From Escherichia coli (GTDB taxonomy: Bacteria; Pseudomonadota; Gammaproteobacteria; Enterobacterales; Enterobacteriaceae), in NCBI RefSeq assembly GCF_024502345.1, contig NZ_JALDNN010000001.1: 64,000 nucleotides of DNA. One strand, written 5' to 3'. The translations under genes and the position numbers were made by a program. Below, one piece after another: positions 38,817 to 54,237 of this stretch (positions are counted from its first letter, which is position 1; the number at the start of each line of letters is the position of its first letter). The notes below the pieces were generated by a model. That model did not search any database, was not told the DNA's origin, and saw only the letters and a program-made list of their open reading frames with translations.

Positions 38817-39095
38817 ATGACCAGAATGAGCACCATTTACAGCAGACTTTCATATGGATCAGGAACCACGCTTGCCGGCTGCGGTGTATCAGCGAAGGCA
38901 TATGCCGAAACAGCTAAAACAGCAAAAGAGGTGTCCTGGATGTTGGCCGACAGAATTGCAGGGTTAAGCCTGAGTGACTGGGCAATTATTGTCGGTATCG
39001 CATGCACAGTTATCACCTGTGCAGTGAACTGGTATTACAGGAAAAAGGAAAGGGAGGACCGGCTTAATGGCAATGTCACCAAAGCAGAAGAATAA
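38817..39095 (+). CDS. putative holin (pinholin-like, possible dual start MTRM)
   Basis: 92-aa ORF with strong RBS ggaggtga, hydrophobic TM segment WAIIVGIACTVITCAVNWYY and charged C-terminus; directly upstream of the endolysin. Confidence 0.6.
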   Translation: MTRMSTIYSRLSYGSGTTLAGCGVSAKAYAETAKTAKEVSWMLADRIAGLSLSDWAIIVGIACTVITCAVNWYYRKKEREDRLNGNVTKAEE

Positions 39096-39615
39096 ACTGA
39101 GCGCAGCGGTCGTTGGGTTAATTCTTGCCGGGGCTTCCGCACCCGTGATTCTCGATCAGTTTCTGGATGAGAAAGAGGGTAACAGCACAACAGCGTACAA
39201 GGACGGCTCTGGTATATGGACCATTTGTCGTGGCGCTACGATGGTTGATGGCAAGCCAGTAGTTCAGGGCATGAAGCTGTCTGCTGAGAAATGTTCCAAG
39301 GTGAACGCCATAGAACGCGACAAGGCGCTGGCGTGGGTCGAGCGAAACATCAAGGTGCCACTGACCGAACCACAGAAAGCCGGGATCGCGTCTTTCTGCC
39401 CATATAACATCGGTCCCGGAAAATGTTTCCCATCTACGTTCTATAAGCGAATAAATGCTGGCGACCGTGAAGGTGCCTGTGAAGCGATCCGCTGGTGGAT
39501 AAAAGACGGTGGTCGCGATTGTCGTCTGACCAAAGGGCAGAAGAACGGTTGCTATGGTCAGGTTGAACGGCGAGACCAGGAAAGCGCGTTGACGTGCTGG
39601 GGGATAGACCAGTGA
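39067..39615 (+). CDS. SAR endolysin (T4-lysozyme-like muramidase with N-terminal signal-anchor-release domain)
   Basis: N-terminal [19 protein letters not shown] hydrophobic segment followed by the E-x8-D-x5-T catalytic triad context ([20 protein letters not shown]). Confidence 0.85.
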
Positions 39616-40127
39616 GCCTGCGCTATCAGTTCATTGTTATTTTGTTGCTGGTGGCCGTTGCATTCTTCGCGGGTAGTGTATGGAGCAGCCGCGGTTGGGA
39701 AAAGAAGTGGGCCGAGCGTGACAGCGTAGAATCATCGCAAACAGCGAACGCACAGACCGCCGCTCGCATGATTGAACAAGGGCGTATTATTGCCCGTGAT
39801 GAGGCTGTAAAAGATGCACAAGCACAAGCCGCTAAATCCGCTGCCACTGCTGCTGGCCTGTCTGCCACTGTTAACCAGCTGCGTACCGAAGCAACAAAGC
39901 TTGCCACTCGCCTGGACGCCGCAAAGCACACCGCAGATCTTGCCACTGCCGTCAGAAGCAAAACAGCCGGAGCCGACGCCGCAGTGCTCGCCGACATGCT
40001 CGGACGCCTTGCAGAAGAAGCTCGATATTATGCTGAGCGATCTGACGAAAGCTACCGGGCAGGAATGACGTGTGAGCGCATTTACGACTCAGTGAGGCAG
40101 TCAAACAACAACAGGGTTAGAAGATGA
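39594..40127 (+). CDS. i-spanin Rz
   Basis: N-terminal TM ([15 protein letters not shown]) plus coiled-coil Ala/Gln-rich periplasmic domain; overlaps the endolysin end; contains the embedded Rz1 frame. Confidence 0.75.
39814..40068 (+). CDS. o-spanin Rz1 (lipoprotein) embedded in the +1 frame of Rz
   Basis: Signal peptide with lipobox-like LLTSC, then a Pro-rich mature region; entirely inside Rz. Confidence 0.65.
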
Positions 40128-40354
40128 ACGCAGAAAACCTAAGTGAAGCGTATTACCTCAATAACGATATAAAAGAACTACAACTTCAGAAAAGCATACT
40201 GGAAAGTGGTGCCGGACTTGGTGTGACAATCCAGTCTACCTATCAGGATAACGCCTTTCTTGATGCCATACGCCCGCATGCAGTGGCTGAACTTGATCGC
40301 CGTATTGTGGAGAAGAAAAAAAACCTCTCCACTCTGGGTGTTACATTCTCTTAA
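40124..40354 (+). CDS. hypothetical small prophage protein (76 aa)
   Basis: ORF starting 4 nt before the Rz stop (translational coupling); no recognisable motif. Confidence 0.35.
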
Positions 40355-40738
40355 ATGAGAACAACAATAAAAGGTTATGTCTGCTTTGCCACATTCTGAG
40401 AGTATGAGTTTTATTTGGTAGTCAATCAGTTACTTTATTGGTTTGCTTTCCGATGGAAGATAGATGTTTCCACAGAAGGGGCAAATTAACGTTATATTGT
40501 TTTTTATTCTCGACAGACTGTGCTTTGACTGGCGGGAGCAATGAGGACAAGTACTTTTCACATGGCGTAAAGTACGCATCTTGATATCTTTGAGTATCGA
40601 CATGTTGATTGTCCTGGTGGGCGGTTAACAACCATACACCACATGTTGGCTAATAGCTTCTTTTATAACCGTTACGATGTAGTCGTTAGCCATAATCAAT
40701 CAAGCCTCGCAATAGCGGGGCTTTTTAACAACTGAGGA

Positions 40739-40942
40739 ATGAGCATTACAGTAGTTCTTACAGCTAAGCAGATTGAAGACCTGGCTGCCTTCGCAAAAGA
40801 AGATGGCCAGCCACAATATACCATCACTACCGGAACAATCCCTGAGTTCGAAGCGGATGATGGCGAGGTTATCCCTGAGTACACCGGGCTGATTGCCTAT
40901 TCCGAGTCGCTAGAGCATAGCGTTCTACAGCTCGATAACTAA
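40739..40942 (+). CDS. hypothetical small acidic prophage protein (67 aa); a degenerate paralogue lies at about 42.78-42.96 kb
   Basis: ORF with the motif F-E-ADDG-x-I-P-x-Y-TGL; a similar C-terminal fragment (FDADDGTLSPNTLGLL...) recurs at 42823-42962. Confidence 0.35.
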   Translation: MSITVVLTAKQIEDLAAFAKEDGQPQYTITTGTIPEFEADDGEVIPEYTGLIAYSESLEHSVLQLDN

Positions 40943-40989
40943 CGAATCAACATAACTTTCCATCCGCCATGACACCACAATGCTCGTAG

Positions 40990-41110
40990 ACATGCCAGGA
41001 AGCCTGGCAGAAGAAGCTCGATACCATGCTGAACGCGCTGATGAAAACTACCGAGCAGGAATGACATGTGAGCGGATTTATGAGTCCGTAAAAATACTAA
41101 CAATGAACCG
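40990..41110 (+). pseudogene. remnant 3' end of a second Rz/Rz1 spanin gene
   Basis: Translates to ...[29 protein letters not shown]..., about 80 percent identical to the Rz C-terminus at 40000-40127; no upstream gene body. Confidence 0.6.
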
Positions 41111-41129
41111 TAGAGGAAAAATAATAGCT

Positions 41130-41514
41130 CTATAAATTAAGATGTTGACGGTTTTCGTGGATAAATTTGTGAATTTTTACTATGAAGGAAATACGACTCT
41201 TCCTTGAGTCAAAATCCCTGACAACTTAGGGTGATAGATAAAGGTCTTACGCAGCATGACATAATTTTCGATTTAAGCTATTTAAATTAATTTTTAAGAT
41301 CAAAACCCACTGAGATTTACTTACAAAACTAAACCTTGCTATGTCTGGTTAATCATGCGTTAATGAATGTCTGGTTTGTAACGAATTTATCTGAAGCAGT
41401 CGCTGTAATAATTTTATTCCTTGTTCCTGTTGAGATTTCCTTGTTAGCTTTTCTCTCTGATAAATTTTTTTCGGACCATTCTGCCCAAGGGCTTACTCAA
41501 TAAAGGTAATGTTT
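41130..41514 (+). promoter_or_regulatory. long AT-rich leader/promoter region upstream of the cold-shock gene
   Basis: About 380 bp AT-rich non-coding sequence before csp, as is typical of the long 5' UTRs of cspA-family genes. Confidence 0.35.
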
Positions 41515-41727
41515 ATGTCTAATAAAATGACTGGTTTAGTTAAATGGTTTAATCCTGAAAAAGGTTTTGGTTTTATCACTCCAAAAGATGGTAGTAAAGA
41601 TGTGTTTGTTCACTTCTCTGCTATCCAGAGTAATGATTTCAAGACGTTGAATGAGAATCAGGAAGTTGAATTTAGTGTTGAACAGGGACCTAAAGGCCCC
41701 ACGGCAGTTAATGTCGTGGCTGTATAA
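41515..41727 (+). CDS. cold-shock protein, CspA family (prophage-borne, CspB/CspI-like)
   Basis: [70 protein letters not shown] with RNP1/RNP2 motifs. Confidence 0.9.
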
Positions 41728-41931
41728 GGTAACTGTTATTACTAATAATATTCACTTCAGATGTCCGTGTTGCCACGGATCTCAGTACCGAACGTCAAAC
41801 TTTGATGTTACTGAAAAAAATCCTTTCGGAGCAAAATGTATTTTTTGCAAATCAACAATGATTACATTTGATAATATTGCACTGTACATTCGTTCTGGTC
41901 AGTCTTCGTTAGAATTCAGAAAATAAATTTC

Positions 41932-41953
41932 AGGCTCCTTATGGAGCCTTTTT
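41932..41953 (+). terminator. intrinsic terminator
   Basis: aggctcc-ttat-ggagcct hairpin followed by ttttt. Confidence 0.6.
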
Positions 41954-41999
41954 TGTATGCTGAACCGACAATCTCTGTAAGAGACATCACGGTAAAATT

Positions 42000-42230
42000 A
42001 TGAAAAAAGTCATCGTTTTTTTTAATGCAGAACCAGCAGTTGTTGTAACCGTAATGAAAGGTATTACTACGATAATGCGTGAGTTTCCCAATGGGGAAAA
42101 AGCACACCTACCCGTGATGTCAGCGGGATTTCCATCTCTGACAGGAGACCATAAAATAGTTTATGTAGCCTCTGATCGTGATGTCAGTTCAGAAGAGATC
42201 CTCGAGGCAGCCTCGAAGCTTTTGAAATGA
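42000..42230 (+). CDS. YmcE-like small protein (76 aa)
   Basis: 76-aa ORF immediately upstream of a gnsA/B-like gene, the same arrangement and size as ymcE-gnsA in K-12; identity not verified. Confidence 0.4.
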   Translation: MKKVIVFFNAEPAVVVTVMKGITTIMREFPNGEKAHLPVMSAGFPSLTGDHKIVYVASDRDVSSEEILEAASKLLK

Positions 42231-42434
42231 GATCTGGTTGTTTCGTGACCGACCCGGATTTTAGTACAGTGGTTTGTGTGGTCGCGAGCTCTTTTGCATG
42301 AAGATTGTACTGCAAACTATTGATAATTGAGTCTTTCTATTCTATCTTTTAAACATATCAGCGCTTATACAAGTGCTCTACGGGGAATGTAACATGCCTG
42401 GCGTTGATACGTTAGAGATCAAGAGAGGTAAACA

Positions 42435-42608
42435 ATGAACGTCGAAGATTTAAAAAGAAAAACTGAAGCGGATATTTCTGAATTCATCACAAAAAAAATT
42501 ATTGAACTCAAAAAAAAGACAGGAAAAGAAGTTTCCGATATCCAGTTTAATGCTCGTGAAAAAATGACTGGGCTTGAAAGCTATGATATTAAAATCACAT
42601 TAATCTAA
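42435..42608 (+). CDS. GnsA/GnsB-family protein (57 aa; below the ORF-track size cutoff)
   Basis: Manual translation MNVEDLKRKTEADISEFITKKIIELKKKTGKEVSDIQFNAREKMTGLESYDIKITLI, close to remembered GnsA/GnsB sequences. Confidence 0.8.
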   Translation: MNVEDLKRKTEADISEFITKKIIELKKKTGKEVSDIQFNAREKMTGLESYDIKITLI

Positions 42609-43049
42609 TTGTTATAAGACTCAGTTCGAGTGAAAAAGCATTATCTTGAAAGGTAATGCTTTTTTATTTCTGTCATAAAATTTAGAACGTTGTCAAAGCC
42701 TTCACTTCTAACCACAGATTTTCTGCTTACCTTTTAACGGGTCCTCCTTGACGATTCTGACCATCGAGGGGCAGCAGCGGCGCGGGATTTGGAGCATTTT
42801 TGATTCTTCACGCAACCATTTCAGCATTTGATGCTGATGACGGAACACTATCCCCGAATACACTGGGTTTGTTGCATTCTCTGATTCAAAAGAACACGGT
42901 GTGCTTCAACTTGGCTGAGCAGGCATTACAGCAGACATTCACTGAGTGCCTGCGACAAAGTTAAATGGCATCAAGCATGCGATGATGATTGATTAATAAT
43001 TGAGCTATGCATGGTATAATAAGCCCCATTCATTGAAAGGTTAACCACC

Positions 43050-43214
43050 ATGTCATTTTTCGATTATGCAATGCAGCGTGTTGGGCTTGCAGCCAATACG
43101 ACTGTCATGTGCCCGATATGCGGACATAAATCCACACACTCGACCACGAAAGTACGCCAACAACAGGCGTTACTTTGCCCTAAATGTAAATCGCTGTTTG
43201 TCATTCACAGATAA
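43050..43214 (+). CDS. hypothetical small zinc-ribbon protein (about 54 aa; below track cutoff)
   Basis: Manual translation MSFFDYAMQRVGLAANTTVMCPICGHKSTHSTTKVRQQQALLCPKCKSLFVIHR with CPxCG...CPKC; followed by terminator hairpins. Confidence 0.3.
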   Translation: MSFFDYAMQRVGLAANTTVMCPICGHKSTHSTTKVRQQQALLCPKCKSLFVIHR

Positions 43215-43233
43215 CATGCGACCTGCTGAATAT

Positions 43234-43256
43234 AACCGCCTACGGGCGGTTTTTTA
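43234..43256 (+). terminator. intrinsic terminator (a second hairpin gccactttcgagtggc + T-run follows at about 43271-43293)
   Basis: ccgcc-tacg-ggcgg hairpin followed by tttttt. Confidence 0.6.
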
Positions 43257-43370
43257 TTGCCATCACAAAGGCCACTTTCGAGTGGCTTTTTTAATGGTCA
43301 TCACGACGGGTATTACAGCAGGAATTACTGAGTGCCTGCGATAATGCTCAATATTTTTATCGGAGTGAAT

Positions 43371-43559
43371 ATGCCACCGCGCACACCGAAGGCCGGCCTG
43401 AAAGGGGCGATACAAAAAAGGGAAAAAATGAAAAGACATAAGCGAAATAAAAAAGCCACCACATCTGCAAATGTGATGGCTGGCATTCGGATTAATTCAG
43501 GTTGGCTGAATAAGTTAGCCGCAGATATTACTAAAATAATTAATGAAGCATGTCCCTAA
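43371..43559 (+). CDS. hypothetical small highly basic protein (62 aa)
   Basis: ggag RBS 5 nt before the ATG; translation MPPRTPKAGLKGAIQKREKMKRHKRNKKATTSANVMAGIRINSGWLNKLAADITKIINEACP. Confidence 0.35.
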   Translation: MPPRTPKAGLKGAIQKREKMKRHKRNKKATTSANVMAGIRINSGWLNKLAADITKIINEACP

Positions 43560-43947
43560 TCTCATCTGAGATATCTCTTGGCCCTGCAGGCTGAGGCGCA
43601 ACCAACCGGGTCGGAAGTCTCTCGAAGAAACCACCACCACCATGATGATGAAAACCCCGGTTATTTTTATAACTATTGAAGTTACTGTCGGTAGTGAGAA
43701 GGATGTTGCACTGGTGCGAGCAGTCAACAACAACGACATCACCTGCATTCAGGTGCATTCGTTTGTGAAGAAATTGCATAAGTCTCCTTATCAAGAGGCA
43801 ATCAGCACTCCTCTCAAGGCTGGTACGCCAACGTCCCACCGCTGACGGGCTGAGCCATTACCTTACCCAGACTCAACGATAAGTAACATCCTGATATTCA
43901 GACAGTAACTGTAATCGATAATGCTGAAGAATAGGCAGTAAATACAG

Positions 43948-44595
43948 GTGACTGATATGGCAACACTGAAGGATTTATCAAACCAGTTAAAGCAACTGCA
44001 AAAGCAAATCCCGTTTGCCACAGCTCAGGCGATGACAAAAGTTGTACGCCAGATTGAGTTGGCTCAGAAGACGGCATTCGAACGACATCTGGAGAGCCCC
44101 ACGCCGTTTACCGTTAAATCAGTTGGTTCGGTGGCGGCAAGAAAGAACAATCTGACCGCAAAGGTTTTTGTCCGTGATACCGCTGCTGGTTATCTGGAAC
44201 CATTCGAGTTTGGCGGAGAGCACAAGCTCAATAGCCAGGCTCTATTAAATCCCAAGAACGTTAAGCTAAACAAATACGGCAACATGCCGCGTAATAAGCT
44301 CTCACAGCTTAAAGCAAAGGAAAATGTATTCGTAGGTGAGGTTGATGGCGTTAACGCTGTCTGGCAGCGTAAGAAGCCGATGAAAGCTAAGAAGCGACGG
44401 GCCAAACGTTCCGCTAACGGGACGCGAAGACCGAAACGCAAACAGCGTTCTCCAAAGCTTTTGATCCGGTTTGGTGATGCGCTACCTGTGACTCCAGTGC
44501 TGGGGTATATGGATAGGGCCCGTACCATGGCGAACGCACTGCTACCGTCTGCTTTAAATCAGGCGATAGCAGAAGCCATCAGGACGGCAAAATAA
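43948..44595 (+). CDS. hypothetical prophage protein (215 aa) with Lys/Arg-rich segment
   Basis: ORF with a central basic tract KKPMKAKKRRAKRSANGTRRPKRKQRSPK; no recognisable catalytic motif. Confidence 0.45.
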   Translation: MTDMATLKDLSNQLKQLQKQIPFATAQAMTKVVRQIELAQKTAFERHLESPTPFTVKSVGSVAARKNNLTAKVFVRDTAAGYLEPFEFGGEHKLNSQALLNPKNVKLNKYGNMPRNKLSQLKAKENVFVGEVDGVNAVWQRKKPMKAKKRRAKRSANGTRRPKRKQRSPKLLIRFGDALPVTPVLGYMDRARTMANALLPSALNQAIAEAIRTAK

Positions 44596-44605
44596 AAGCA
44601 GTAAC

Positions 44606-45109
44606 TTATAAGTTAATTTCGCAAGCTTTTATGAAGCTGTTTACTGCAGTTGTCGATCCAGAAACATTGGCTGACATGGAATGCTGGTTTCCGCCATCCT
44701 TTGTTTGCACACCAACTAACACTTTGGATTTCGCCCCCTGAAGCTGCTTAAGCACTGTTTTCAGTTGGTCCGTGTCATCCGATTGAATCTGGAGGCTCTG
44801 AACATTACGTCTTGAAAGGGTAGCATCGAGCTTCACTGCGGTATTCCCGTCGACCTTCATTATCAGGTCCATTGGTACCTCTGATAGTGATTCGGTGCTT
44901 TTATCCATTTCAACGTATGCCGCCGATAGCTTTTCTTTAGTGCAGTCAAACACAATGGCGCCATTGTCGGATGAAACCTCGCCAAGCATCATTGCTTTCT
45001 TACCACCAGAGAAAAGGTCATCTTCAGTATTAGTTACCCACTGGGCATGAGCAATTGGTGATGCCAGCACTGCGGCTACGAAAGTTATTTTGATTATATT
45101 GTTACCCAT
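44606..45109 (-). CDS. secreted/periplasmic protein, moron-like, opposite strand to the phage late genes
   Basis: Signal peptide MGNNIIKITFVAAVLASPIAHA then a soluble domain; convergent with the neighbouring phage genes (Bor-like placement, but no lipobox). Confidence 0.5.
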   Translation of the reverse strand: MGNNIIKITFVAAVLASPIAHAQWVTNTEDDLFSGGKKAMMLGEVSSDNGAIVFDCTKEKLSAAYVEMDKSTESLSEVPMDLIMKVDGNTAVKLDATLSRRNVQSLQIQSDDTDQLKTVLKQLQGAKSKVLVGVQTKDGGNQHSMSANVSGSTTAVNSFIKACEINL

Positions 45110-45253
45110 TACATTCTCCTTGTATTGAATAGGAATAATCATAGTCGGAGCGAATGGTCGAAGCCATTAAAAAAATGGGTCCTTCCTGAGACTTTTGTAA
45201 GGCACGGGCATTGCGCGCCGCGGTGTTTTCCTAGCTACAACTTTCAGATTTGT

Positions 45254-45402
45254 GTCCCATGTCCCACCTCTGGCGATCATTACGGACACCTCGCCAGCTC
45301 TGGCTATTCCAGTTTATTCCAGTGGGACATTCTGGTGGGACATGGCAAAAATGTCCCAGGCGAATGTCCCACCCCAGAAAATGTCCCAGGTGATGTCCCA
45401 TG
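45254..45402. promoter_or_regulatory. array of 8 copies of (A)TGTCCCA, 6 direct and 2 inverted; putative cosB-type binding sites
   Basis: Motif at 45254, 45261, 45322 (inverted), 45335 (inverted), 45351, 45364, 45381 and 45393, the last overlapping the terminase small-subunit ATG; GC-rich gcgcgccgcgg lies just upstream (about 45212-45225). Confidence 0.45.
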
Positions 45403-45969
45403 ACCACGATGAACCAGAGTCAGTACGCACAACATTCAGGTGTGGATCGCAAAACAATTGGTCGGTGGATTAAAGCCGGGCGCTTCATTGTGATGGACGG
45501 AGACCTGATTGACGTAGAGGCCAGCGATGCGGCATTGAAGAAAAACCGCGATGGCAAAGACCCGCGCGCCTCGAACGCGAAGAAAAAGAAAACTCCCGTC
45601 GTTAGCGATAACGATGATGACGGTGATGAAATCAATAAAACTGTCCGCCAGATAATGCTCACTGAAGGGGCAGATCTTTCGAGAGAGGAAGCGGGACGTA
45701 TCCGCGAGAATTACATGGCCCTGCAGGCAAAGCTGCAGTATGAAAAAGACAGCGGCCAGCTTATTGAGCTGACAGCAGCCGAGGAGGTTTTATTCAACGC
45801 CTTTCGCCAACAGCGTGATGCCTGGCTTAACTGGCCGTCCAGGGTGGCGCCGCTAATGGCTGCTGATCTGGATGTACCGGCGGACAGGATGACAGAGGTG
45901 CTGATTGAACATGTCCACAAACACATCTCAGTCCTCGGAGAGCCAGAGTTTAACCCGGCAGAAGATTGA
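45400..45969 (+). CDS. terminase small subunit (lambda Nu1-like)
   Basis: N-terminal winged-helix region (RKTIGRWIKAG) and C-terminal resemblance to lambda Nu1; immediately upstream of the large subunit. Confidence 0.75.
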   Translation: MTTMNQSQYAQHSGVDRKTIGRWIKAGRFIVMDGDLIDVEASDAALKKNRDGKDPRASNAKKKKTPVVSDNDDDGDEINKTVRQIMLTEGADLSREEAGRIRENYMALQAKLQYEKDSGQLIELTAAEEVLFNAFRQQRDAWLNWPSRVAPLMAADLDVPADRMTEVLIEHVHKHISVLGEPEFNPAED

Positions 45970-53335: not shown

Positions 53336-53695
53336 ATGGGCGTGGACTGGGATTCTCATCTTCTGAGTCCGCTGCATGATGTCTTTGGCGATGAGCACGA
53401 GTACCGTCCACGTAACGGTACTCCTTTTACAATTAACGGGATTTTTGACCGTGGTTATGCGCAGGTTGCTGAAAACCTTGATGGCGATTCAGAAATTAAC
53501 ACCTCCAGCCCGATGTTGGGTGTGCGCGATGCTGAATTTCGCAAGCTGGGTAAATCGCAACCTGCTGTATCTGACCGGGTATTTATAAAGACGGTCGGTG
53601 GTCACATCATCAATCAGTTATTTGTTGTGTCAAACGTCGAACCCGACAGTCATGGCGGATCTCGTCTTGTCCTCAATGTGGTAAAACCGCGATGA
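53336..53695 (+). CDS. head-tail connector/head completion protein (FII-like position)
   Basis: About 119-aa ORF by position in the head-to-tail transition. Confidence 0.4.
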   Translation: MGVDWDSHLLSPLHDVFGDEHEYRPRNGTPFTINGIFDRGYAQVAENLDGDSEINTSSPMLGVRDAEFRKLGKSQPAVSDRVFIKTVGGHIINQLFVVSNVEPDSHGGSRLVLNVVKPR

Positions 53696-54237
53696 ATTCA
53701 GCAGCGATACGGCAAATGGTTGTCACTGCACTAACCGGGACAACCAGCGCGGGCGACCGCGTATTCTCTCCACGCGACTGGTCAACTTCACCAGATATGT
53801 ATCCTGTGTTGTTGGTTCAGACGCCTTTTGAACAGAAAAAATCACAGGGGCGTAATACCCCTGCTTTTACCACCCTCACCACTGTCAGGATCACTGGGCG
53901 CGTTCAGGAGTATGACGGCGATACAGTGGATGATGGAGCCATGCGGGCAGAGCTGGCGCTTGAAAGCCTTCGCGAGCAGGTGGAGCGCGCGGTGATCAAC
54001 AGCTACGAACTGACGCGGAATATTCAGAAATACGCGGAAGTTCGTTCAACCATCAATGTTGATTCAGAAGGAGAGGCCCATATGGGGCAGCTTCTTTTCG
54101 AGATCGATATAGAGCATTACCAGGGGCCGGAAGATTTTTATCCTGTCCAGTCGGTTCCCCTTGAGGGCATGGATATTGCGGTCGACATGCCAGACGGCAC
54201 AGTTAAACCGGGTATCAGCCTCAATCTTCAGGAGTAA
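53692..54237 (+). CDS. putative tail completion/neck protein
   Basis: 181-aa ORF overlapping the neighbouring stop codon; by position. Confidence 0.4.
   Translation: MNSAAIRQMVVTALTGTTSAGDRVFSPRDWSTSPDMYPVLLVQTPFEQKKSQGRNTPAFTTLTTVRITGRVQEYDGDTVDDGAMRAELALESLREQVERAVINSYELTRNIQKYAEVRSTINVDSEGEAHMGQLLFEIDIEHYQGPEDFYPVQSVPLEGMDIAVDMPDGTVKPGISLNLQE

Follow-up and report, generated by a model that had tools for sequence, protein, structure and literature searches.

We analyzed a block of three open reading frames (ORFs) located between the lysis cassette and the cos/terminase region of a prophage in a 64-kb stretch of Escherichia coli DNA (contig NZ_JALDNN010000001.1), hereafter referred to as the window, to which all coordinates refer. 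A first-pass annotation, made from the sequence alone, had described these ORFs as one unassigned set of accessory cargo. All three are present at the positions given below, but they are not a functional unit. Instead, we hold with good confidence that the block is the mosaic right end of a cos phage, in which four unrelated items lie side by side: ORF2, most likely this phage's gene for the tail completion protein (TCP); the moron ORF3; ORF1, apparently a recombination scar; and a minus-strand slot that carries a truncated DUF1883 gene. The main features are as follows.

43371-43559, plus strand: ORF1, 62 amino acids (aa), very basic and chimeric, with only the C-terminal ~40 codons conserved
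43957-44595, plus strand: ORF2, 212 aa, most likely a TCP of the lambda gpZ/HK97 gp10 kind and a late virion-assembly gene
44368-44457, plus strand: basic disordered loop of ORF2, residues 138-167, net charge +17
44606-45109, minus strand: ORF3, 167 aa, predicted Sec/SPase I-secreted protein with an IalB-like fold, a moron

The host element is a cos-packaging temperate myovirus prophage of the BZS1/phiNP kind, combining a lambda-type head and packaging module with a Mu-type contractile tail. Its closest sequenced phages are Citrobacter rodentium phage phiNP and Serratia phage BZS1, both temperate myoviruses, and megablast of the block against 50,697 phage records returned no match. According to exact-sequence look-ups, the proteins of the block occur mostly in genomes of the Citrobacter freundii complex, with near-identical copies in E. 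coli, Enterobacter, Kluyvera and Salmonella.

The listed reading frame of ORF2 (43948-44595) had been described as a 215-aa protein with a Lys/Arg-rich tract. The tract is indeed there, whereas the length is probably 212 aa, since ATG 43957 is the RefSeq start, is preceded by an AGGTGA ribosome-binding site (RBS) and agrees with the homologues, which all begin MA.L. ORF2 matches PHROG 1924 'minor tail protein' (E 2e-62), and an exhaustive HMMER search assembled a family of 1147 cluster representatives at 50% identity, some members of which bear public names such as 'minor tail protein Z' or 'HK97 gp10 family'. All family tests (alignment, Pfam, loop charge) were carried out on 69 representatives. 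The AlphaFold model built from this 69-sequence alignment reached a predicted local distance difference test (pLDDT) score of 92.8 and consists of a 40-residue N-terminal helix, a beta-rich middle part, the disordered basic loop and a 28-residue C-terminal helix. The predicted model has every element of the TCP fold (long helices at both termini, the N-terminal one bent, and a beta-hairpin/loop region between them), and its topology fits the published TCP description, in which lambda gpZ possesses an extra beta domain (PMC11661146). At the sequence level, the Pfam family Minor_tail_Z (PF06763) was recovered for 2 of the 69 representatives at E<=1e-3 and for 9 of them at E<=0.1 (best 2.7e-7), and alignment of the ORF2 family with lambda gpZ by hhalign was colinear (E 7e-4). 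A sequence-profile search of the family against the PDB gave chance matches only.

The loop at residues 138-167 comprises 17 Lys/Arg and not a single acidic residue, and the blocks covering residues 141-160 are modelled with a pLDDT of only 66-73. Although its sequence varies across the family, its net charge is at least +3 in 68 of the 69 representatives (median +7), and lambda gpZ has a comparable Arg-rich tract. ORF2 itself is under strong purifying selection, with a ratio of nonsynonymous to synonymous substitution rates (dN/dS) of 0.04-0.08.

When the family profile was run against the 568 six-frame ORFs of the window, ORF2 was the sole match. The remaining neck and tail ORFs match other PHROGs, and the adaptor Ad1 (gpW), the head-closure protein Hc1, sheath and tube are all present; together with gpW, Hc1 and the 181-aa protein encoded ahead of the sheath gene, ORF2 completes the expected neck set. 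A 126-aa ORF following the capsid gene was considered as a TCP paralogue and ruled out. The 181-aa protein (53692-54237, phrog_6774) lies just before the DUF2635 and sheath genes; it has no Pfam match, and comparisons with Mu gpK and with the Dryocola tail terminator detected no similarity. In BZS1, the homologous protein p11 was detected in virions (PMC7556043) and is mislabelled 'ATP-binding tail sheath protein'. From its position and the presence of p11 in BZS1 virions only, the 181-aa protein is probably the tail terminator.

TCPs have been placed structurally and genetically in other phages. In 80alpha, the TCP gp51 sits in the neck lumen as a monomer, bound to the tape-measure trimer at its N-termini and in contact with the DNA end, and the authors of that study equate gp51 with lambda gpZ, SPP1 gp16.1 and HK97 gp10 (PMC11661146). 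SPP1 gp16.1 is tail-associated and has a role in head-tail joining and DNA routing (PMC11099176); in its absence, both head-tail joining and the routing of DNA into the cell fail, and lambda particles lacking gpZ look normal while their infectivity is about 500-fold lower (PMC11661146, PMC11099176). By analogy with 80alpha gp51, SPP1 gp16.1 and lambda gpZ, ORF2 would reside in one or a few copies in the neck lumen on top of the tape-measure protein, where it would touch the last-packaged (right) DNA end, make the joining of head and tail productive and prime the exit of DNA. Its disordered loop, with its conserved positive charge, probably contacts DNA.

Within this group, ORF2 adopts the same predicted fold as gpZ (PF06763), HK97 gp10 (PF04883), SPP1 gp16.1 and 80alpha gp51 (PDB 9mu2, chain P); it shares with gpZ an additional beta insert and a tract rich in Arg and Lys, and like other TCPs it is present in a single copy per genome. 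Unlike typical TCPs of the gpZ/gp10 type, ORF2 falls below every Pfam and NCBIfam threshold and serves a Mu-type contractile tail. Mu gpG (Mup31) and P2 gpS are TCPs of contractile-tail phages as well, and ORF2 is likewise assigned as the TCP of a myovirus.

Several observations weigh against this assignment. ORF2 itself matches no NCBIfam or Pfam model (for Pfam even at E 10), the hhalign probability to the single gpZ sequence is low (27%), and no relation of the ORF2 family to Mu gpG could be detected by the same method (probability 5%, N-terminal motif only). Furthermore, mass spectrometry of gel bands from BZS1 virions identified 13 proteins, among which p72, the ORF2 homologue, was not found (PMC7556043). 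The portal and gpW homologues likewise escaped detection in those virions (PMC7556043), which argues that low-copy proteins were missed by that survey. Finally, the gene lies upstream of cosN and the terminase small subunit gene terS, not between the head-closure and the tail-terminator/tube genes. Taken together, ORF2 is nevertheless most likely the TCP of this phage, with fold and family membership resting on the model and the profile comparisons and the role assigned by analogy.

The displaced position of ORF2 is a trait of its family, not an accident of this prophage. In phiNP, the homologue phiNP_029 stands immediately ahead of cosN and terS; in BZS1, the Rhodobacter Cronus-like phages and Dinoroseobacter phage R4C, it occupies the extreme right end of the linear genome; and in Acetobacter phage phiAP1 it lies ahead of the terminase genes. 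The ORF2-ORF3-cos-terS block is retained in E. coli prophages whose lysis cassettes are unrelated. The tightest linkage between a TCP homologue and the terminase was found in a metagenomic contig (L017, 74-3434), in which an ORF2-family gene is inserted between terS (phrog_57) and a gene for a GpA-type terminase large subunit (terL), overlapping its neighbour by 4 nt on each side. Mu offers a precedent for such a displacement: its TCP gene G is located in the portal/packaging cluster, five genes ahead of the tail terminator (PMC11099176), and is thus removed from the tail genes in the same manner as ORF2. As inferred from lambdoid biology, a Q-antiterminated late transcript would run from the lysis genes through ORF2, across cos and into the head genes, passing a plus-strand terminator at 43234-43251 on its way. 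In a further contig (L018, 5001-10086), an ORF2-family member (34% identity) comes last after a DUF927 primase-helicase block and is followed by opposite-strand genes with DUF2326, MC6 and CTD10 domains; this locus may represent a satellite or a prophage end with conflict-system cargo.

This map position raises the question of whether a protein with the TCP fold might serve mainly in packaging, as a terminase accessory factor or a protein of the right cohesive end. Such a role would explain why the gene is linked to cos, terS and terL rather than to the tail genes, as seen in many phages in which it lies just upstream of cos/terS or ends the linear cos genome, and most closely in the metagenomic contig with its two 4-nt overlaps. 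The strongly basic loop, the missing detection of the homologue in BZS1 virions (PMC7556043) and the proposal that lambda gpZ binds one DNA end specifically (cited in PMC11661146) are also compatible with it. Against this, the homologous 80alpha protein has been located directly in the tail/neck lumen on the tape-measure protein (PMC11661146), SPP1 gp16.1 is associated with tails and acts in head-tail joining and DNA routing (PMC11099176), and Mu gene G is also found near portal and packaging genes, so that such a position implies no packaging role. Moreover, were ORF2 not the TCP, the prophage would have none. We therefore regard a predominantly packaging-related function as quite unlikely and favour the TCP assignment. 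As a separate and unlikely possibility, a gpZ-like TCP would be co-adapted to the cohesive end and the terminase and would for this reason be kept in a cos-terS-TCP linkage group.

The region separating ORF3 from terS contains the following elements.

45209-45220, plus strand: cosN, 12-nt cohesive end GCATTGCGCGCC, identical to the annotated cosL of Serratia phage BZS1
45259-45400, both orientations: seven ATGTCCCA motifs between cosN and terS

For BZS1, the 12-nt 5' overhang was determined experimentally (PMC7556043). The sequences flanking cosN in the window are homologous to those flanking the BZS1 site, and the same GCATTGCGCGCC 12-mer also occurs in the interval from the TCP gene to terS, both in phiNP and in E. 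coli prophages. This position of cosN means that the right arm of the virion DNA ends with ORF2 and ORF3 as its two final genes. As for the ATGTCCCA motif, all 7 of the 7 exact copies in the window fall within these 142 nt, compared to a chance expectation of 1.9 for the whole window, and the array is a probable cosB, that is, a set of candidate binding sites for TerS. In addition, comparison with an E. coli prophage revealed that ORF3, cos and terS are near-identical (synonymous divergence, dS, 0.009), whereas the neighbouring ORF2 differs considerably (dS 0.30), which places a recombination joint in the 10-nt gap at 44596-44605 (contig L002, 9641-9650).

ORF3 and ORF2 are convergent, their stop codons lying only 10 nt apart, and an AAGGAG RBS precedes ORF3. 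Two further elements belong to it.

45044-45109, minus strand: predicted signal peptide of ORF3, residues 1-22, cleavage between AHA and QW
45134-45145, minus strand: conserved box ACTATGATTATT, ~25-36 nt upstream of the ORF3 start, with a candidate -10 hexamer TATGAT at 45138-45143

The first-pass annotation had noted a cleavable signal peptide on the opposite strand, and this prediction held up well: the segment combines a Lys-containing n-region and a hydrophobic core with an AXA motif, the model leaves residues 1-20 disordered (pLDDT <50), and both A22 and W24 are invariant in 26 ORF3 homologues. Besides the signal peptide and W24, the homologues conserve the motifs DDLFSGG, RRN and KDGGNQ and an invariant pair of cysteines. 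ORF3 is under purifying selection and belongs to PHROG 19473, a family of unknown function; its relatives form 33 clusters, of which all annotated ones come from Enterobacterales. In the model (pLDDT 85), ORF3 folds into a beta-sandwich accompanied by two helices. Foldseek against AFDB50 places ORF3 in a continuum of ~165-aa uncharacterised proteins that occurs in Enterobacterales, Pseudomonas and Rhizobiales and passes gradually into annotated IalB proteins, and the predicted model has an IalB-like fold.

In sequence-based comparisons, neither ORF3 nor any of the 26 family members matches the IalB Pfam family PF06776, the PDB sequence-profile search gave no IalB match for ORF3, and ORF3 has no Pfam or NCBIfam match. 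A partial local match of the family to a de novo designed protein (E 0.0011) was discounted as fortuitous. By tblastn, ORF3 had no match in phages and only two in plasmids, both on Pantoea megaplasmids (45% identity), and a literature search on the RefSeq accessions, PHROG ids and DUF4354 yielded nothing relevant. In comparison to IalB (PF06776; PDB 3DTD), ORF3 is of similar size and likewise carries a Sec signal. Unlike IalB, it shares only 12% identity, does not match PF06776 by sequence and is prophage-borne in Enterobacterales, whereas IalB is chromosomal in Alphaproteobacteria. A Bor/Cor-like lipoprotein was rejected as an identity for ORF3, whose signal peptide has no lipobox Cys. ORF3 is thus predicted to be exported to the envelope; it would leave the cytoplasm by the Sec route, fold into an IalB-like beta-sandwich that is probably disulfide-bonded, and probably be expressed from its own promoter. 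Since the mechanism of IalB-domain proteins is not known, the fold gives a location, the envelope, and no activity.

ORF3 is a moron: it is absent from BZS1 and from phiNP (where the TCP gene is followed directly by cos and terS), it has a low GC content (0.446, whereas the late region has 0.53 and terS/terL 0.525-0.554), it runs convergently to ORF2, and its homologues occupy different slots. Homologues with 63-65% identity are found in the same slot between TCP gene and cos in Salmonella and Klebsiella. In two Mu-type tail modules (contigs L012 and L026), a homologue lies between the tape-measure gene and the DNA-circularisation gene (gpN), and others lie at the end of Mu-like transposable prophages, immediately after com-mom, with different insertion loci in E. 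coli (L009-L011, 4042-5504). One homologue, in Leminorella (60% identity), is chromosomal with no phage context. Upstream of this Leminorella gene, the ACTATGATTATT 12-mer is identical, while the rest of the upstream region has diverged, and the box may be the -10 region of a promoter travelling with ORF3. A simple sigma-70 scan called no promoter for ORF3 (weak -35) and no terminator of its own was found, which is a point against our reading of ORF3. ORF3 would have entered the gap that separates the TCP gene from cosN, in the orientation opposite to late transcription, at the place that bor occupies in lambda. As for lambda bor and other lysis-to-cos morons, it sits between the lysis genes and cos in antisense orientation, is predicted to enter the envelope, has a low GC content and is present in only some relatives. 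In contrast to the lipoprotein Bor, to which it is unrelated in sequence and fold, ORF3 lacks a lipobox and is predicted to be soluble in the periplasm, and the gene has no terminator of its own that we could find.

As to what ORF3 may do, every phage context found for its family, in a small sample of a handful of contexts, has a Mu-type tail. For this reason our best single guess, weakly favoured and rather tentative, is that ORF3 would be a periplasmic exclusion factor directed against phages that inject through Mu-type tails. The broader claim that ORF3 founds an undescribed family of Sec-exported, IalB-fold prophage proteins excluding Mu-tailed phages in the periplasm, possibly through interception of the tape-measure protein, gpN or the spike while these cross the envelope, we consider unlikely; if true, it would explain how ORF3 hops among three slots and yet is always found in Mu-tailed prophages. 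Two facts count against exclusion: the idea draws only on co-occurrence with Mu-type tails in that handful of contexts, and one of the homologues, a chromosomal gene, has no phage context. A realistic possibility, though still short of probable, is that ORF3 serves the lysogen as a general envelope, fitness or virulence factor, comparable to lambda Bor or Bartonella IalB, with no part in conflicts between phages; in a variant of this explanation, it would have a late lytic function in the periplasm. The IalB-like fold is consistent with such a role, as IalB-domain proteins work at the envelope (IalB promotes the invasion of erythrocytes, while RgsG functions in polar growth as an essential protein of the periplasm), and so is the Leminorella homologue. 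On the lambda map, bor has the map position and orientation that ORF3 has here. In the two Mu-like tail modules, the ORF3 homologue is on the same strand within the late tail operon, which would fit late expression. Conversely, ORF3 is not a member of the IalB Pfam family at the sequence level, IalB itself offers no known mechanism to transfer, and a Mu-type tail in every phage context found would be unexpected for a generic fitness factor.

ORF1 is of a different nature altogether. It is very basic, as had been described, with 15 Lys+Arg versus 3 Asp+Glu, and it does have an RBS (GGAG 8 nt 5' of the ATG), but this RBS is not its own, as becomes evident from the elements around it.

43314-43394, plus strand: relic of an HK97-type HNH endonuclease gene, comprising a 57-nt leader with RBS and 8 codons (MPPRTPKA)
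43444-43481, minus strand: intrinsic terminator inside ORF1, with a 12-bp stem (43454-43481) followed by UUUUUUAUUU
43543-43779, minus strand: truncated DUF1883 gene, 79 aa from ATG 43779 or 72 aa from ATG 43758

By blastn, positions 43314-43393 share 84-88% identity with annotated HNH endonuclease genes over their leader and first 23 nt; these genes sit directly upstream of P27-family terS in other E. coli prophages. The ORF1 ATG is the ATG of the HNH gene, the two proteins share only residues 1-8 (MPPRTPKA), and homology stops after 43393. As start and leader match the HNH gene, the RBS of ORF1 was inherited from another gene. No HNH catalytic motif or domain was found in ORF1, and everything beyond codon 8 is unrelated to the HNH endonuclease. 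Compared to the HNH endonuclease of the HK97 gp74 type encoded next to the terminase, ORF1 thus retains the leader, the RBS and the first 8 codons, and both map just upstream of packaging genes; unlike in the HK97 gp74-type setting, the present phage has a lambda GpA-type terminase.

The minus strand of this region, comprising a DUF1883 ORF and an antisense terminator that had gone unmentioned in the earlier annotation, appears to be a cargo slot. The terminator stem at 43454-43481 was found by a terminator scan and is present in the minimum free energy fold; in antisense, the terminator encodes the stretch 'KKATTSANVMAG' of ORF1. All 12 of its 12 pairs are kept in 3 diverged sequences, with 2 compensatory double changes, and the G-U wobbles pair on the minus strand only. 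On these grounds, we read it as the terminator of a minus-strand cargo slot, which holds different genes in different prophages. Here, the slot would now be occupied by the truncated DUF1883 gene. Its ORF, which RefSeq/NCBI names DUF1883 domain-containing protein, matches positions 1-62 of the 89 in Pfam DUF1883 (PF08980, E 9e-15), so the domain is not full-length, and positions 11-71 of the 268 in PHROG 9211. The last ~17 residues of this fragment match the end of an unrelated 104-aa ORF that is intact in a related contig (L016), and the comparison identifies the DUF1883 ORF as a fusion in which the N-terminal portion of the domain is joined to another gene's C-terminal tail.

Relatives of ORF1 form only 8 clusters among 5.8 billion proteins, nearly all annotated Citrobacter. 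They are called at 46-76 aa, with differing N-termini or frames, and the last ~40 residues alone are conserved. ORF1 has no PHROG, NCBIfam or PADLOC match; a strand-helix pattern suggested a truncated ribbon-helix-helix protein, for which there is no evidence. The arrangement is best accounted for by a recombination scar, in which the start signals and 8 codons of an HNH gene would have been joined to sequence made up mainly of the 3' end and the terminator of the minus-strand cargo slot, and the coding status of ORF1 as defined appears doubtful. Such a scar may or may not give rise to a basic peptide of 43-62 aa. An alternative is that ORF1, or its 43-aa C-terminal core beginning at an internal Met at 43428, is a real small basic protein, for example a nucleic-acid-binding peptide. 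This is a possibility to be taken seriously, albeit a doubtful one. Even in homologues with as little as 49% identity, the C-terminal 40 codons keep their frame and a conserved stop, which counts against a mere scar, as do a conservative hydrophobic pattern in the core and a dN/dS of 0.34-0.41 there (0.49-0.51 for the whole ORF); moreover, ORF1 is called as a gene in >200 contigs. On the other side stand the narrow distribution described above, a frame that is not kept in the N-terminal third of the relatives, a central part constrained by the antisense terminator with its compensatory changes, a 3' end that overlaps the minus-strand ORF, and the lack of any match to the families searched. Overall, ORF2 and ORF3 are real genes under purifying selection, and the evidence for ORF1 is ambiguous.

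The surroundings of the block bear directly on the claim that it forms part of a cargo hotspot between the lysis genes and cos. The neighbouring genes are listed here.

39067-39615: endolysin, lysis cassette upstream of the block
39594-40127: Rz, with Rz1, lysis cassette upstream of the block
45400-45969, plus strand: terS, terminase small subunit (phrog_57, E 5e-36), start of the packaging/head module
53336-53695: Hc1 head-closure gene, 9 kb past ORF2

The expected order, with a lysis cassette upstream and cos/terminase downstream, was borne out by the endolysin, Rz, terS and terL genes. Behind terS follow the GpA-type terL, gpW, the portal, an S49 protease, decoration and capsid proteins, Hc1, and the Mu-type sheath and tube. 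The hotspot, too, is real: between Rz and the block, positions 40124-43300 form a 3.2-kb run of small moron-type genes with a GC content of 0.40, including a csp gene and a ynfU-like gene.

Several features of this run were observed in passing. A textbook moron extends over 42993-43251, where a promoter-like site at 42993-43020 (TTAATA-16-TATAAT with TG) is followed by a ynfU-family zinc-ribbon gene (43050-43214; NF038384, E 1e-20) and the strong plus-strand terminator at 43234-43251. A second small CxxC...CxxC zinc-ribbon ORF resembling the ynfU-like gene, with no PHROG match, is located on the minus strand at 40430-40603. A cspA thermoregulator RNA element (RF01766, 143 bits, over the gathering score) at 41370-41786 precedes and spans the prophage cold-shock gene at 41509-41727, and a sub-threshold STnc220-like match lies at 41884-41960. 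Within the three-ORF block, an Rfam scan of 40000-45600 revealed no RNA family, and no tRNA genes were found. Finally, a 51-aa ORF at 40980-41135 duplicates the C-terminal part of the Rz spanin (39594-40127) and appears to be the leftover of a second lysis cassette within the cargo run.

Given these surroundings, it is conceivable that all three ORFs are accessory cargo for lysogenic conversion, exclusion or defence, possibly acting as one unit, as the first-pass annotation had proposed. The low-GC run at 40124-43300 adjoining the block, the RefSeq label 'hypothetical' carried by ORF1, ORF2 and ORF3 alike and the fact that ORF3 is real cargo agree with this proposal. Nonetheless, we judge it very improbable. 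ORF2 is by fold and family a TCP homologue and is retained with cos and terS across alpha-, beta- and gammaproteobacterial phages; the distributions of the three ORFs differ widely (8 clusters, nearly all Citrobacter, for ORF1, 1147 for ORF2 and 33 for ORF3); and a mosaic joint separates ORF2 from ORF3. The suggestion of defence cargo found no backing in PADLOC-DB, since no ORF matches a known defence-system model: ORF1 and ORF2 had no match, and ORF3 had chance-level matches only (E 0.007 and 0.018), so that none of the three falls below E 0.007. Of the proposed cargo set, what remains is thus ORF3, an uncharacterised secreted gene, while ORF2 drops out as a TCP homologue and ORF1 is weakened to a recombination stub. 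Homology to structural or packaging proteins, which had been named as arguing against cargo if it held for all three ORFs, was found for one of the three, ORF2. These results again favour the mosaic right end of a cos phage composed of four unrelated items.

What is new here is an unannotated branch of a known structural family with an unusual but conserved map position, together with a small orphan family of IalB-fold morons; neither result alters current concepts. For the ORF2 family, the consequence is that a very large group of proteins, 'hypothetical' in RefSeq and with no Pfam or NCBIfam model, can now be named TCP, and the ORF2 sequence alone accounts for hundreds of enterobacterial contigs. 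The position of the TCP gene beside cos and the terminase is worth weighing in the annotation of neck modules and in the mining of prophage 'cargo' for defence genes. ORF3, with its confident structural model, restricted host range and suggestive association with Mu-type tails, provides a compact and testable moron.

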